Position numbers and translations under genes: made by a program. From positions 1 through 24,508 of the IMG/VR virus record IMGVR_UViG_3300032335_000502: a stretch of 24,508 bases of DNA, one strand, 5' to 3'. A model generated the notes under the pieces. It was not told the DNA's origin and did not search any database. It worked only from the letters and a program-made list of their open reading frames with translations. This document shows, one piece after another, positions 1,311 to 19,112 of the stretch (within the stretch, counting starts at the first letter, position 1; the number at the start of each line of letters is the position of its first letter). The stretch comes from a virus (taxonomy: Duplodnaviria > Caudoviricetes).

Positions 1311-1365
1311 GTTTCCCCGTCCCTTCCGGTTCCAGCCACGATGCATGATACCCCGCCATGAACAA

Positions 1366-1397
1366 TACGGCGGGTTGGCTTGCACCAACCCGCCGTA
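1366..1397 (-). terminator. Probable intrinsic terminator
   Basis: Perfect 13-bp stem TACGGCGGGTTGG/CCAACCCGCCGTA with a GCAA loop closed by U-G on the minus strand, followed by TTGTT, just after the stop at 1420. Confidence 0.7.
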
Positions 1398-1419
1398 CCG
1401 CGCCCTTCTTTCGCCCGGA

Positions 1420-2242: not shown

Positions 2243-2677
2243 TTAGAACTCGCCATCGTTCGCAACCGTCGTCGCGCCATTCATGCCGGACGTCACCGCC
2301 CGTGGTGGTTGCGCCGGACGCACCGTCGTGCGTGCCTCGCTGTACGTCACCTCCTCGTATCCCGCCAGCCCGTCACCGGACCCGTAATACCCTGCCATGG
2401 CAAGCGCCCGTCCGTACGCCGAAGTTTCCGCGGTCTCGACCGGCGAGGATGCCTGCGCACCGCCACCGGACCCACGGGTCACCTCGGACGACCCTTCGAA
2501 CACGCGCCCGTCGGTGAATTGCACCGTCACCACGACGATGTGGAACTCACCGAGGCTCGTGAACCGCGTCACCGTCGACGCGATCCCCATCGGCCGGATC
2601 CACTCCCCGTGCGCCTGCTGCGCCCGGTGCGCCACCGTCGCGTACGGTTTGCCCCGTATCTGCATTATTCCGCCCAT
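2243..2677 (-). CDS. Rad52/Sak-like single-strand annealing protein
   Basis: IRGKPYATVAHR...ETAETSAYGRALAMAG...AGYEEV matches the GKxYxxVxxR / ExAETSAxGRAL pattern of phage Rad52-superfamily proteins. Lies in the replication module. Confidence 0.7.
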   Translation of the reverse strand: MGGIMQIRGKPYATVAHRAQQAHGEWIRPMGIASTVTRFTSLGEFHIVVVTVQFTDGRVFEGSSEVTRGSGGGAQASSPVETAETSAYGRALAMAGYYGSGDGLAGYEEVTYSEARTTVRPAQPPRAVTSGMNGATTVANDGEF

Positions 2678-2975
2678 GTCCCTTTGCCTTCCGTTCCGAG
2701 CGCCTGATCAACAGCGCCGGGACCACCCCGAGCGCCTGTGCAATCCGTTCGAGCGTCTCCTTTCTTATCGCCGCCTGGCGCTTGCCGTCAGCCACGTCCC
2801 GCCCACGCTCGGCGCGCACGATGGTGGCATACGACGTGTTCGACAACCGCGCCAGCGTTTCCCTCGACATGCCTGCGAGCAGGCGGACCTGCCGCATCGT
2901 CTCGCCGGAGATCCGGACATCGTCGCCGTACCCGCGCCACGCGACCGTGACGCTGGCGCGCTCAAAGTCCGGCAT
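2547..2975 (-). CDS. XRE-family helix-turn-helix transcriptional regulator
   Basis: MRQVRLLAGMSRETLARLSNTSYATIVRAERG...ETLERIAQALGV is a canonical HTH_XRE pattern. Start is coupled to the upstream stop (TGATG at 2973-2977; alternative GTG at 2978). Confidence 0.85.
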   Translation of the reverse strand: MPDFERASVTVAWRGYGDDVRISGETMRQVRLLAGMSRETLARLSNTSYATIVRAERGRDVADGKRQAAIRKETLERIAQALGVVPALLIRRSERKAKGHGRNNADTGQTVRDGGAPGAAGARGVDPADGDRVDGDAVHEPR

Positions 2976-3349: not shown

Positions 3350-3801
3350 GCCATCACCCCGAACCCGGAGCGCATGACGGCGCGGGCCTCATCCTCGTCG
3401 CATTCGATCACGCTGTCGCCGGAGGCATCATCCACAATCATCGTGAACACGTCCGGCCTGCGCTCGGGTCGCACGACAACCACCGGAACCGACGCCTGGA
3501 GGATGCCACCGCGGACCGGACGGCGATACCGCCCGTACGGCGAGATCATGTCCCAGACGTCGGACCACACCGCTTGCCTCGTCGTGAGCACGCCACGCTG
3601 ATCGACGAACCCGTGCGTGATCACGGATAGGTCCGCCAAGTGCCCGTGATCCCGCGTCACCGTGATGTCCGCATCGGGATAGCGCGCGGACAACTCCATG
3701 TGCACCTGCACCTCGAATGCGTCGCACGATGCGTTGACATCATCGCCGACCTCCGGACCGACGCCGATCAGCGCCGGTGTGTACGTTACCTCGATCTCCA
3801 C
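3346..3801 (-). CDS. Hypothetical acidic protein, 151 aa (first gene after promoter P2)
   Basis: GTG at 3801 preceded by GGAAAGGGGA RBS. The longer ORF-track start crosses the promoter. Confidence 0.7.
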   Translation of the reverse strand: MEIEVTYTPALIGVGPEVGDDVNASCDAFEVQVHMELSARYPDADITVTRDHGHLADLSVITHGFVDQRGVLTTRQAVWSDVWDMISPYGRYRRPVRGGILQASVPVVVVRPERRPDVFTMIVDDASGDSVIECDEDEARAVMRSGFGVMA

Positions 3802-3828
3802 CTGTTCCCCTTTCCTGGTCTGTCCTAC

Positions 3829-3857
3829 ATGGTGCCACATGGCTATAACCATGTCAA
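3829..3857 (-). promoter_or_regulatory. Sigma70-type promoter P2 with palindromic operator
   Basis: Minus strand TTGACA-17 bp-CACCAT with TG at the extended -10 position. Near-perfect palindrome ACATGGCTATAACCATGT at 3837-3854 overlaps the -35 box and spacer. Confidence 0.8.
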
Positions 3858-5969: not shown

Positions 5970-6403
5970 AGGTCACGCCGGTACGCGTCGGCGTCCTCTT
6001 GCATCGCGTCACGCAGCGCCCGCAACCGCGCCACCGCCTCCATCAACGTGACACCGTCATCCGCAGCGCCCGTCCACACGTCGCGCCATTCGCCGTTGTG
6101 CGCGCGCGCCTTGGAGAGTTTCGCGGCTGACCAATCACGCACCGTGAGCGGACCCACAACGCTGATCGTGTACACACCGTCGCGCTCGGTGAGGTACGCG
6201 ATCTGTCCGCCTGCCTCGTTGCGACGCTCGCGGTCCTGCTGATCCCACGAGATCAATCCCCAGTGCTGGACGCTGTGATCGCCCTTCACCGTCGTGAACG
6301 GTCTGTACTGCGGCACCGCGTTGACGACGTACGAATGCGTGTACCGCGTCGGGTCCATCCGCGGCGCCAGGGTTGCCCGGACCTTGGCCGTTCGTGCTTC
6401 CAT
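5966..6403 (-). CDS. Hypothetical protein, 145 aa (first gene after promoter P1)
   Basis: ATG at 6403 preceded by GGAAAGGGGAG RBS. Confidence 0.75.
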   Translation of the reverse strand: MEARTAKVRATLAPRMDPTRYTHSYVVNAVPQYRPFTTVKGDHSVQHWGLISWDQQDRERRNEAGGQIAYLTERDGVYTISVVGPLTVRDWSAAKLSKARAHNGEWRDVWTGAADDGVTLMEAVARLRALRDAMQEDADAYRRDL

Positions 6404-6426
6404 TGCAATCTCCCCTTTCCAGCGTC

Positions 6427-6455
6427 ATCGTAATACATGGCTATAACCATGTCAA
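6427..6455 (-). promoter_or_regulatory. Sigma70-type promoter P1 with palindromic operator
   Basis: Minus strand TTGACA-17 bp-TACGAT. Same palindrome ACATGGCTATAACCATGT at 6435-6452; 21 bp identical to P2. Confidence 0.85.
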
Positions 6456-6479
6456 CCTTTTTCGGGACCAATTCCGGGC

Positions 6480-6527
6480 AAACGGAAAACCCGCCCATCC
6501 GGTGGTCGATGCCGGACGGACGGGCGG
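6480..6527 (-). terminator. Probable intrinsic terminator ending the late/lysis transcript
   Basis: Minus strand CCGCCCGTCCG...CGGATGGGCGG stem (one G-U) followed by GTTTTCCGTTT, directly upstream of P1. Confidence 0.65.
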
Positions 6528-6703
6528 AAACGGAAGGGAACCGGACTGGAAGGGGAAATGTGGCGGGGAGACCGCCACCATCAAAACGGATGATGCCCGC
6601 CGGTGTTTCGCACCGACGGGCACCAGGCGGATTGCACCCGTCGCAACGGGGGAAATGCGACGGATGCTGCGCGCAACCGGCGCGCGGGGAAACACGCCGG
6701 TTA
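6480..6703 (-). ncRNA. Candidate structured RNA (five hairpins, C/U-rich loops)
   Basis: Stems at 6675-6702, 6634-6667, 6594-6622, 6560-6578 and 6491-6527. Four contain a pair that is G-U on the minus strand but an A-C mismatch on the plus strand. Loops include UUUCCCCG, UUUCCCCCGU and UCUCC. Confidence 0.5.
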
Positions 6704-6997
6704 CCCGGTCGGCGTGGCGGTCAGGATTATGGCGACCACGGTCCCGATCACGCTATCAACGGCCTGCTCGAACGGCGCGACGTACTCACCGAGACCGATC
6801 AGGTTCAGGAACGCATCAACGGTGCCCGCGCTCGCGACCGCCTTGGCAACCCAGATCACGGCGCGCACGATGGCGATCCCCATCGTCGTGACGGCAACGA
6901 CGCGTCGCCAGTGGCGACCGGCCGAGCGCGCCCATGCGAGCGACGCCGTGAACGCAATCCACAGCGCATCCTGAACCAGATCGCGCGTGCGCATCAT
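6701..6997 (-). CDS. Small membrane protein (holin/antiholin-like), 98 aa
   Basis: GGAG RBS before ATGATG. Hydrophobic segments LWIAFTASLAW, VVAVTTMGIAIVRAVIWVAKAVA and VIGTVVAIILTA. Follows the lysis genes. Confidence 0.6.
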   Translation of the reverse strand: MMRTRDLVQDALWIAFTASLAWARSAGRHWRRVVAVTTMGIAIVRAVIWVAKAVASAGTVDAFLNLIGLGEYVAPFEQAVDSVIGTVVAIILTATPTG

Positions 6998-7019
6998 CGG
7001 ACCGCTCCATATACACGTA

Positions 7020-7145
7020 TGCCCGCCCCACGGTGGGTTGCCGTGTAGGGCGGGCACTCGGTTTTGCGTTTGCGCGAGTTGTGGTTGACCCAAACGCAGT
7101 GGCGTCGCACCAAACAGGGTCGCGACACCTCCCAGGTTTCCCCGG
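7020..7145 (-). other. Intergenic cluster of four hairpins (structured leader or ncRNA)
   Basis: Stems 7132-7145 (CCGGG-GAAA-CCUGG), 7101-7129, 7065-7098 and 7020-7056. Confidence 0.45.
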
Positions 7146-7159
7146 TTGCGCCTAGTCTA

Positions 7160-7417
7160 TCACGCACCCGGTGTCGTTGTGCCACCACCACCGGACCCCG
7201 CGGACCCTGGCGGGTACCCGTTGCCGTTACCGTTCGGCGTCTGGCCGGACCCTCGGAATAACCAGCCCGTCACCGCACCAGCAGCGCCCACGAGCGCGGT
7301 CTGACTCGATTGCGACTGATCGTACAGCGCCGACCAACAGATCGCGCCCACGACCATGACCGCGATGACGCCACCGACACCCTCGCGGAACGTCCACACC
7401 GGCTTTTCAGGCAACAC
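7160..7417 (-). CDS. Putative holin, 85 aa
   Basis: Two hydrophobic segments (GVGGVIAVMVVGAICWSAL; ALVGAAGAVTGWLF), immediately downstream of and overlapping the endolysin. Confidence 0.65.
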   Translation of the reverse strand: MLPEKPVWTFREGVGGVIAVMVVGAICWSALYDQSQSSQTALVGAAGAVTGWLFRGSGQTPNGNGNGYPPGSAGSGGGGTTTPGA

Positions 7418-8129
7418 CGGCGGACGCCTCGGCCGACGCGGCTGCGGCTTCGAGTTCGGCCACCCGCGCCTTTAGTGCGCCGATCTCCTCAATCCACGCA
7501 CCGAGGCTGGCACTGTTCGCCGACCACGCCTTGACGGCGCGCAACAGATCCGGCACCTCGGATGCCGGGTAGCCAGTCTCGGTCAATGCCTCGGCGATTG
7601 CTTTCAGTTCCGGTGTCACGGCGTCCTCCTGGTGCGTCTCCGCCCACGCATCGTACGCGTGCGCGACAAGGATCGGGTCGTAGTATTGCGCTGCCACCGC
7701 CTCGCGAGCCTGACCCTTCGGCCAGTAGCGCCAGTGTGGCGGTTGCTCGCGGGACACCTCGAAGTGCAGATGGCAATATTCCCACCCGCCGGACCGTCCG
7801 ACCGCTGCAATCGGTTGCGTCCGTTTCGCCGTGGTCCCGATCTCGGTGTACGTCGCGTCACTCAGATGGCAATAATGCACGTAGGACCCCGCGTAGGGTC
7901 CCGCGTCAAGTCGCCACCACTGATGCAGGCCGAATCCGGTCAGATCCACGATGTGCGCCACGAGCGTCTGATCGGTGATCGCGACTACGGGCGCACCGCA
8001 GTCGGCATTGCCGCCCGACCCGCTATTGAAGTCGACCCCTGGGTGCCAGCATCCGGACCCATTGTCGTCCAACCACCCAAATCCACCCATGAGGGCGTTG
8101 TGTTCCGTGCTGTCAATCTGGGGAAACAT
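7407..8129 (-). CDS. Endolysin, M23-family metallopeptidase
   Basis: HPGVDFN (HxxxD), YCHL and VGRSG...HLHFEV (HxH). AAGGAGG RBS supports the ATG at 8129 (alternative 8135). Helical/coiled-coil C-terminus. Confidence 0.85.
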   Translation of the reverse strand: MFPQIDSTEHNALMGGFGWLDDNGSGCWHPGVDFNSGSGGNADCGAPVVAITDQTLVAHIVDLTGFGLHQWWRLDAGPYAGSYVHYCHLSDATYTEIGTTAKRTQPIAAVGRSGGWEYCHLHFEVSREQPPHWRYWPKGQAREAVAAQYYDPILVAHAYDAWAETHQEDAVTPELKAIAEALTETGYPASEVPDLLRAVKAWSANSASLGAWIEEIGALKARVAELEAAAASAEASAGVA

Positions 8130-17391: not shown

Positions 17392-17661
17392 TCAGCCGGT
17401 TCCTCCAGGCAACGTCACCCCAGTCGCCCTTGCCAAGGCATTCCGGGCCGCCTCGGGCAGGGTCGACTGTCCCGCGATCCACGTTGCAAGCGCGGTCCGT
17501 TCGGCCAGTTCCAAGGCGTCCTTGGCATCCTTCTCGGCGCGTTCCGCCTCGGCACGGGCCATATCCTGCTGCAATTGCGTGATCTCCTCCGCCGTCAACG
17601 GTCGGACGATCTCCACGCCGGTTTCACAGTTGATCTCGATGGCGATGGGTGGTTCATTCAT
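17392..17661 (-). CDS. Small fibre-associated (chaperone-like) protein, 89 aa
   Basis: EINCETG...RPLTAEEI followed by a charged coiled coil. TAATG-coupled to the fibre gene. Confidence 0.7.
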   Translation of the reverse strand: MNEPPIAIEINCETGVEIVRPLTAEEITQLQQDMARAEAERAEKDAKDALELAERTALATWIAGQSTLPEAARNALARATGVTLPGGTG

Positions 17662-19112
17662 TAGGGGAGTCCGTATAAGCGAAAAGTGGACCCGTTAACG
17701 AACGAGTCTCCCGCCGTACAAGTAAGCGTTATAGATGTTATTGCAGATAGTGATTTCCAATACCCAGAAGGACACGACCATGATCCTAAATTGATGCCGG
17801 TCCCACTGTTGTTTCCGTAACTTAACAGTGTGGTTTTAAAGAATGTAGTGGACGTATAGTTTAATATTAATAATACCGCTCCGCCTCCGCTAGTTGCTAG
17901 TCCGTTAGTATTGCTCATTATAACGCCATTCGCTATATATGTAGTGGCTCCATTTGATTGATTTAAATAATTGCTACCTGTATCAGCGTTGAATACAGCG
18001 CTACCCCACTGTTCGGTATAGGCTCCGCTAGAGCGCTGCACGCTTACAAGTTGTAAATGAGTAAATGTACTCGGTATCGAACTGAACGTGTATGTAGCGG
18101 TATTTGCAGTTATGTTCGCACTCGCCAGCAGCGTCGGTACATTACTCAACGTATGCACGTGATCTGCCCGTGCAAGGGTCGTGAGGCTCCCCGTCGCGAG
18201 CGCAGTGGTCTGCCCATTGACGACGACGGGTGTGCCAAACGCCTCGCGACTGTGGCGGTGATCAGACAGCGCCACGGTCGTAGCAGTCCCCGTCGCTGCC
18301 GTGTCGCCGACCGCGGATGCGCCTGCGATGGCTGATCCAGGCATGGCATGGACGTGATCAGCCAACGCCGGACTGGCACTGGTGCCCGTCGCCTGCGTGC
18401 TGGACACCGTCAATGCCGAGGGTGCTGCACCAGCGGGAAACGCGTGCTTGTGATCCTCCCGCGCCACGCCGGTTGACGTGCCAGCAGCAGCCGTCCCGCC
18501 AATCGTGGATGCGGTGATTGTCGTGCCGTATGCCTCGCGACTGTGGCGATGGTCTGACCGCGCCACCGTTGTCGCACTGCCTGCTGACGCCGTGTCCGCA
18601 ACTGCGGATGCGCCAGGCGTGGCGAATGCCTCGCGTCCGTGCGTGTGGTCTGACCGCGCTACCGTGGTCGCCGTGCCAGCGACTGCGCTGTCACCCACCG
18701 CTGACGATCCGGGAGTGCCATATGCCGGTGCGTTCACCGTGACGGCACCCGTTGCGCCGGAGACCGACACGTTCGTCCCGGCCACGATGGATGTGACGCC
18801 GGTGTTGCTGATCGACAGGCTTGTGGTCTGCGACCCGGTAACCGTGATCCCGGTGCCACCAGCAACCACCGGCGCGGTGATCGTGACCGCGCCGGTTGAT
18901 GCGGACACCGTCACGCCCGTGCCTGCGAGACTGGTCACGCCCGTGTTGCTCACACTCAGCGTGGTTGTGCCACTGATCCCGATCCCGGTGCCAGCCGCAA
19001 TCGAGGCTGCAATCGTCGGCGTCGTCGTGCCGGTGACCGTGATGCCGTTACCGGCCGTCACGGATGTCACTCCGGCTGCGCCACCGCCACTTGTGCCGAG
19101 CGGTCCGGACAT
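17661..19112 (-). CDS. Repeat-rich fibre protein, 483 aa
   Basis: GVTS/AGTGI repeats, six DHxH repeats of about 30 aa, and a C-terminal globular domain (TFSSIPSTFTHLQL...AITSITL...GSTFRLYG). Confidence 0.8.
   Translation of the reverse strand: MSGPLGTSGGGAAGVTSVTAGNGITVTGTTTPTIAASIAAGTGIGISGTTTLSVSNTGVTSLAGTGVTVSASTGAVTITAPVVAGGTGITVTGSQTTSLSISNTGVTSIVAGTNVSVSGATGAVTVNAPAYGTPGSSAVGDSAVAGTATTVARSDHTHGREAFATPGASAVADTASAGSATTVARSDHRHSREAYGTTITASTIGGTAAAGTSTGVAREDHKHAFPAGAAPSALTVSSTQATGTSASPALADHVHAMPGSAIAGASAVGDTAATGTATTVALSDHRHSREAFGTPVVVNGQTTALATGSLTTLARADHVHTLSNVPTLLASANITANTATYTFSSIPSTFTHLQLVSVQRSSGAYTEQWGSAVFNADTGSNYLNQSNGATTYIANGVIMSNTNGLATSGGGAVLLILNYTSTTFFKTTLLSYGNNSGTGINLGSWSCPSGYWKSLSAITSITLTCTAGDSFVNGSTFRLYGLP

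Follow-up and report, generated by a model that had tools for sequence, protein, structure and literature searches.

A conserved five-hairpin RNA domain between the lysis and early genes of related lake phages, and its predicted pairing with early ribosome-binding sites

Phage and locus

What is the role of a 220-nt non-coding gap that separates the lysis genes of a tailed phage from its early genes, and could an RNA made from it act on those early genes? Few phage-encoded regulatory RNAs have been characterised. The gap (6484..6703, minus strand) lies in a 24.5-kb piece of a tailed phage (24,508 nt; hereafter the window), in which the identified genes are all on the minus strand. Genes for portal, protease, capsid, tail, tape measure and M23 endolysin are followed by two small hydrophobic ORFs and the gap, beyond which early genes encode a DNA methylase, an XRE-type helix-turn-helix protein and a primase. 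An earlier note, made from the sequence by itself, had read the gap as a five-hairpin RNA complementary to the phage's own early ribosome-binding sites.

Sequencing runs that contain the window stretch are mostly freshwater or lake metagenomes. A circular relative of 33.9 kb (G001) has the lysis-RNA-early block in common with the window, and the head and tail modules differ. It encodes its own sigma factor, and no integrase was found among the 76 ORFs scanned in it, which together suggest a lytic phage with a sigma-driven late switch. Additionally, G001 (loci L140 and L141) has a HINT domain in its tape-measure protein and a PAPS-reductase-like early gene, and its head and tail modules are unrelated to those of the window. 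A search for the host by endolysin gave six Thermus phage records as matches (30-36% identity) and no host; two 2.4-kb contigs in a Rhodobacteraceae bin may be misbinned. Similarly, cluster look-ups returned no host organism, and a search of annotated phages gave three matches at E 0.8, judged to be chance.

Two further features of the window were observed. Inside the M23 endolysin gene (7407-8129), an internal GGAGG site with a start codon at ~7619 (minus strand) leads to an in-frame 70-aa C-terminal product; the same arrangement is present in G001, G002, G003 and G005, and suggests an endolysin with two starts. Positions 18159-18719 hold degenerate ~100-nt repeats within a 483-aa ORF (17661-19112).

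Minus-strand RNA structure

Positions 6480-6703 of the minus strand fold with a minimum free energy of -118.7 kcal/mol (z -7.50), and none of 200 shuffles was as low; the plus strand gave a z of -3.27, with one of 200 shuffles as low. The minus-strand fold was the better one in 7/7 copies tested. The five consecutive stems described earlier are thus found on the minus strand, with a fold excess over shuffles that exceeds that of the plus strand. Four stems, H1, H2, H3 and H5, contain the G-U pairs that the earlier note had pointed out, and H4 has none.

The hairpins differ in how they are conserved among 33 distinct full copies from related lake phages. H1 (6674..6703, minus strand, as are all the parts that follow) begins at the stop codon of the upstream gene, ORF98, and carries a C-run loop with at least four C in 32/33 single-sequence folds. 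H2 (6634..6667) is an optional extra hairpin with a C-rich loop, present in 21 copies and missing from 12. H3 (6591..6625), a 15-bp hairpin with a CGAAA loop, is near-invariant: 32/32 nt are identical in nine of ten relatives and 31/32 in the other, and the third codon positions of ORF98 in these relatives are 51-83% identical. H3 is a candidate protein-binding or processing site. The stem of H4 (6560..6578) forms in 33/33 copies and its loop is variable, with 10 variants among the 33 copies, including GCAA, UACAG and UCCAA; since the loop varies this freely, an anti-Shine-Dalgarno role for it was dropped.

Between H4 and H5 lies a C/U linker (UUCCCCUUCCAGUCC...UUCCCUUCC; 6526..6559) that is largely single-stranded and is the predicted base-pairing segment. 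It contains CUUCCAGUC at 6552-6544, with a mean unpaired probability of 0.39-0.92, and the motif UCCC(C)UUCC was found in 33/33 copies. UCCCUUCC is part of the linker in one sub-clade, and the other sub-clade has it in the loop of the terminator. The claim that unpaired C/U motifs recur along the RNA is therefore upheld for the linker and for the C-run of H1, and fails for the loop of H4.

The domain ends in an intrinsic terminator (6486..6525), in which the GC-rich hairpin H5 (6525-6489) is followed by a U-tract. Its stem is 100% paired across the copies, with compensatory changes in 5/14 pairs. The U-tract has at least four U in 33/33 copies and at least five in most, that of the window being short; a simple terminator scan did not list this terminator.

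Other architectures were considered and rejected. RNAalifold suggested an upstream CCGCC/GGCGG helix that would close the hairpins into a c4-like three-way junction, and its probability is at most 0.12 in 33/33 copies. A likeness to CRISPR repeats or hammerhead motifs was likewise discarded on inspection, the second arm or the core being absent.

Selection and spread among lake phages

A search with the endolysin led to 16 loci, of which ten span the gap, one is cut inside the element and five end before it; the element is kept in 10/10 of those that span the gap. DNA-pattern matching in metagenomes gave 76 matches, comprising 38 true copies and 38 chance matches. Because these copies were chosen on the H3 loop and CUUCCAGUC, the invariance of both sequences is taken from the protein-found loci, in which they are also invariant. 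Pattern matches outside the clade, and locus L152, were put down to chance.

Across H1, H2, H3 and H5, 99.2% of 1582 cells are paired and 8/53 pairs have both-side changes (five of them in the terminator), with 0/500 shuffles reaching this, although kinship inflates both the pairing and the both-side-change counts, and H4 was left out of these statistics because it is misaligned. Slid-alignment controls gave 33-44% paired. On the minus strand, G-U pairing accommodates almost every one-sided change. Compensatory and G-U-only changes in the 33 copies thus agree with the earlier claim of selection on a minus-strand RNA, and the minus-strand RNA structure is under selection.

In two distant sister phages with an ORF98 homologue of ~40% identity, a hairpin and then a C/U tract lie behind that homologue; both loci (L146 and L151) were identified by visual inspection. 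The sister RNA of L151 folds with a z of -5.1 on the sense strand vs -2.5 on the other. Its layout (L151 5087-5312) is different, with the C/U tract predicted to lie in a long stem with an internal G-rich run, and it is possibly a processing substrate or a switch. A search with a model of the element (R1) yielded no distant homologue from 14 sources or 3 genomes, with L146 among the sources that the model missed. The Rfam check proposed in the earlier note yielded no family: no match was obtained at E<=1 in the window, and five sub-threshold matches fell on the element region and three on the sister loci. Overall, the element is a real, undescribed, clade-restricted structured phage RNA.

Neighbouring genes and transcripts

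Comparative analyses of the flanking regions bear on when the RNA might be made. ORF98 (6701..6997, minus strand), the last gene of the lysis cassette, encodes a 98-aa hydrophobic protein of no known family, with hydropathy peaks of 2.1 and 1.5. It has 172 relatives at E<=0.01. The longer ORF containing it had no Pfam or PHROG match; ORF98 had no Atlas match, and none of the 17 representatives found gives a function. The product could be an exclusion or a lysis-timing protein. ORF98 is more variable among close relatives (~76-98% identity), and the predicted promoter and leader were gained in this clade.

That leader (7000..7150, minus strand) contains four hairpins (z -3.93, 0/200 shuffles), and multi-hairpin folds were obtained for 30/30 distinct leaders. 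Both-side changes occur in just 2/28 consensus pairs, in a poor alignment, and the leader may be a second structured RNA in its own right. It displays one fold in several sequence variants, with CAACC-type loops that recur in the loop of H5. Upstream of it, TGA-TAnnnT is read as a predicted extended -10 promoter (TGn-TAnnnT; 7154..7162, minus strand), which overlaps the stop of ORF 7160-7417, so that its TG/TGA is also part of the stop codon. In the 30 distinct leaders the hexamer is TATGAT (21), TAGACT (8) or TATCAT (1). With the conserved extended -10 box, the four-hairpin leader and the 98-aa membrane ORF upstream of it, the element need not be late; the box is ~460 nt upstream of the first hairpin, which makes the label 'late' uncertain. 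Host polymerase may instead make a separate 670-nt transcript, not strictly late, that has the hairpins as its 3' domain. The sister phages have no such leader, their ORF98 overlapping the stop of the gene upstream of it, and thus the domain there ends the lysis operon.

Assembled contigs from three metatranscriptomes (X18-X20) cover the locus patchily and at low depth, and as contigs give neither strand, ends nor level. Pieces from X20 lie at 6329-6529 and 6567-6714, and at this low depth no piece of X18 or X19 covers the element. The RNA contigs were also compared with a relative's locus, which gave nothing further.

Downstream of the gap is an early sigma-70-type promoter (TTGACA-17-TACGAT; 6427..6455, minus strand) with a palindromic operator at 6435-6452. 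This 18-nt operator is exactly repeated at 3837-3854, with 0 such repeats expected by chance. Each palindrome is located between the -35 and -10 of an early promoter, and the XRE-type protein (2547-2978) is a candidate operator binder.

Candidate early targets

All five antisense matches to early translation-initiation regions that had been proposed are exact, although two of the matching segments (6685-6694 and 6565-6571) lie partly in stems. Across the whole window, the maximal exact antisense matches of the element comprise 131 of 8 nt, 40 of 9 nt, 11 of 10 nt, five of 11 nt and one of 13 nt. So many matches of equal length mean that the quoted lengths say little by themselves, and the caveat attached to the proposal, that short low-complexity matches arise by chance, is borne out. 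The longest match, 19/22 nt between 6537-6558 and 1312-1333, had been missed.

An accessibility-aware duplex scan, run with a method other than IntaRNA over the entire 24.5-kb sense strand, placed early ribosome-binding sites at ranks 1, 2, 5 and 10 of the predicted partners, in keeping with the expectation that they would rank high. Rank 1 is the site of the gene starting at 1310 (1312..1333, minus strand), which pairs over that 19/22-nt match. This site is kept with changes in L018 and L024 and is replaced by GGAGG in L028/G002. Just upstream of the gene-1310 leader, a conserved GC hairpin (~1355-1405, minus strand) is kept in four relatives, even with a different downstream gene. Rank 2 belongs to the first early gene, which starts at 6403 (site 6408..6423, minus strand; -17.5 kcal/mol); its site is also the partner of the linker in cis in a read-through RNA. 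Rank 5 is the site of the gene starting at 2677 (2674..2693, minus strand; -16.9 kcal/mol), whose orthologous sites rank 1 in G001, 6 in G002, 5 in G004 and 1 in G005, and are outside the top 12 in G003. Rank 10 falls to the gene that starts at 3801 and follows the second operator (site 3796..3815, minus strand; -14.6 kcal/mol). The linker is used in 29/30 of the top predicted interactions.

The four early partners are AAGGG-type and the strong late sites are GGAGG-type. For instance, the late site 14202 pairs equally well with a generic anti-Shine-Dalgarno sequence (-9.5) and reaches -7.1 with the linker, vs -18 to -23 for the four early sites with the linker. Over six genomes (the window and G001-G005), AAGGG and GGAGG sites occur in a ratio of 14:9 in early gene families and 1:13 in late ones, with a Fisher p of 0.0016 that is optimistic because the families were counted by hand (hits judged internal or out of frame dropped, orthologues merged) and early leaders are partly duplicated cassettes. 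With automatic starts in the window, the linker prefers early over late genes (11 vs 25 genes, p 0.002), and the generic anti-Shine-Dalgarno sequence gives p 0.10.

However, most of the target signal is base composition. Dinucleotide-shuffled linkers average -65 vs -78 for the real linker when summed over the four sites, which were chosen post hoc, and 9/300 reach the real value; the single sites are reached by 15, 61, 68 and 16 of 300. The early-minus-late gap is matched by 4/60 shuffled linkers in the window and by 42/60 in G001, in which the generic anti-Shine-Dalgarno sequence separates early from late sites as well as the linker does (p 0.026 vs 0.035). Cognate linker-target pairs have no advantage over swapped pairs in three target classes (permutation p 0.42, 0.94 and 0.98), and co-evolution of linker and targets was dropped as a candidate. 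Since shuffled linkers are nearly as good and linker and target do not co-vary, pairing is motif-level and not site-specific. The high ranks of the early sites were thus supported, and the specificity claimed for individual matches was not. Any pairing is generic C-run/G-run recognition and is indistinguishable from host targeting.

Several details point the same way or limit the pattern further. Most of the top sites predicted for G002 and G003 fall within coding sequence, the GGAAAGGGGA match requires a bulged A, and each genome tested has one well-scoring late site (-17.2, -20.1). The tract of L151 is predicted to form internal pairs, the early sites of L151 are of GGAG or GGGAG type, and pairing to them reaches -3 to -8 kcal/mol; a sister RNA matching its own early sites was dropped on the weakness of this pairing. 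Pairing with the start of ORF98 was likewise dropped (-8.2).

Interpretation of the element's role

The reading that we prefer, held at slightly under even confidence, is that the RNA is a trans-acting brake on AAGGG-type early sites. It builds on the observed fold, strand, conservation, exposed C/U motifs and early/late site difference. The 220-nt gap would be a conserved structured RNA domain with a terminator end, transcribed at the 3' end of either the late lysis message or the 670-nt transcript that the predicted extended -10 promoter would give. A stable RNA of this kind would, through its linker and C-run loops, pair in trans with AAGGG-type early ribosome-binding sites in vivo and damp early-gene translation, largely sparing the GGAGG-type late sites. 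C-runs are predicted to recognise G-runs at the level of the motif, and host mRNAs with such sites are therefore predicted to be hit as well. The case for early-gene repression is plausible at the level of motifs. If true, it would offer an RNA route to the early-to-late switch and would imply that Shine-Dalgarno variants can serve a phage to sort its genes. H3, the most invariant part, is not explained by a trans brake.

A more elaborate version appears possible, if somewhat unlikely: early AAGGG and late GGAGG sites would form two codes, decoded by an RNAIII-like timer that silences early translation and that of matching host messages. Such a transcript, with its own promoter, structured leader, small membrane protein and C/U-rich 3' domain, would accumulate during infection.

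The linker could also act in cis, with read-through transcripts hiding the first early ribosome-binding site and the hairpins stabilising the ORF98 message. Several observations suit this role, which we nevertheless consider unlikely overall. In 33/33 distinct loci (only loci with AAGGG or AGGGG sites were kept), sequence upstream of the terminator pairs with the first early site at P > 0.5, and in the read-through fold of the window the site at 6408..6423 pairs with the linker at P ~1.0, the leader initiated at the early promoter being almost unstructured by itself. Furthermore, the U-tract of the window is short, the tract of L151 pairs in cis, and in T4, long transcripts sequester the sites of the genes e, soc, 49 and I-TevI as a means of control (PMC3014915, in part). 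However, the trans brake predicts the same read-through pairing, the folds are without a shuffled control, and a cis role leaves unexplained why H1 and H2 have C-run loops and why a second hairpin of this kind was gained, as well as H3 and the presence of the same site class kilobases away. It is rather unlikely that the RNA acts mainly on host mRNAs or as a sponge for host RNA, or that H3 serves for nuclease processing or for binding a protein of the host or the phage, in which case the early-site match would follow incidentally from the sharing of strong ribosome-binding sites. No phage target is as conserved as H3 and CUUCCAGUC, phage leaders offer no conserved partner to the AGUC part, and co-variation with phage sites is absent, all of which are consistent with such a partner, as is a lambda sRNA that acts on host genes (10.1101/2024.10.31.621285, in part); the split between early and late site sequences would need another cause.

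A plain terminator with stabilising 3' hairpins and perhaps a Rho-loading linker, or a signal at the DNA level, with no regulation by base pairing, is improbable. H5 is an ordinary terminator, C-rich stem-loops have been hypothesised to be termination structures in high-GC bacteria (cited in PMC6486639, in part), and the minus strand folds well as DNA too (z -6.9 vs -4.0). Nevertheless, five conserved helices, a sequence-invariant H3 and the shift of a motif from linker to loop would be superfluous for termination, and the repeated G-U alternations favour RNA over a DNA signal. A variant in which the 3' UTR pairs with its own message, as in icaR (PMC3868564, in part), fits poorly with the score of the ORF98 site. 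Trans, cis, host or protein, and terminator roles are not mutually exclusive. Even under the cis reading, the element would represent a conserved family of phage RNAs that is new and has no entry in Rfam 15.

Relationship to known regulatory RNAs

The c4 antisense RNA of P1/P7 and the CI RNA of P4 are phage RNAs that act in trans on their own early transcripts; c4 forms a multi-stem junction closed by a basal helix, and its dedicated target boxes co-vary with the RNA. RNAIII of S. aureus is laid out as a structured leader, a small hydrophobic ORF and a regulatory 3' domain. Like c4 and the P4 CI RNA, the element is predicted to act in trans on its own early transcripts. Unlike c4, it has no match to RF01695, under which the c4 antisense RNA is listed (PMC2864571, in part), its closing helix is improbable, there are no co-varying target boxes, and the circular relative yielded no integrase. 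As in RNAIII, the element possibly belongs to a stand-alone transcript with a leader, a hydrophobic ORF and a 3' domain. Its UCCC-type motif, predicted to be mostly unpaired (not in L151), recalls both RNAIII and RsaE, which uses unpaired UCCC motifs against Shine-Dalgarno sequences (PMC2790875, in part); unlike either, it comes from a phage of 63% GC, without a sequence or model match, and its predicted targets are its own early genes.

A literature search, mostly of papers open without subscription, found no description of the element or of a phage RNA that silences its own early sites. Five motifs had no match in the supplementary files of Fremin 2023 (PMC10690425) that the search covered, and it is possible that the element is already among the unnamed candidates of that study. 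The best Rfam score on the region was that of the alphaproteobacterial ar7 sRNA (RF02342), which similarly has three GC stems and C-rich loops; at 23 bits vs a gathering threshold of 60, with an E of 0.012 obtained only in a 361-nt search, this is a likeness of shape only. Closer in its predicted action is the 6C (B11) sRNA of high-GC Gram-positives, whose C-run loops pair with G-rich ribosome-binding regions, independently of a chaperone in that study (PMC6486639, in part). The C-run loops of H1, the C-rich loop of H2 where present and the predicted pairing with G-rich ribosome-binding sites are all like 6C. The 6C covariance model (RF01066) had no match at E<=1 in the window or at E<=10 on 6400-6760, and the element differs from 6C in its five helices, long C/U linker and terminator, in being phage-borne and in its location behind a membrane ORF.

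Phage T4 offers the nearest parallels in logic. Its site-sequestering hairpins, like the read-through fold described here, involve long transcripts that hide a downstream site, and its RegB, a protein nuclease, shuts off early messages via the Shine-Dalgarno sequence (PMC3014915, in part). In both systems early messages would be picked out by their Shine-Dalgarno sequence, the reader here being an RNA, and a two-code timer, if true, would be the RNA counterpart of RegB.
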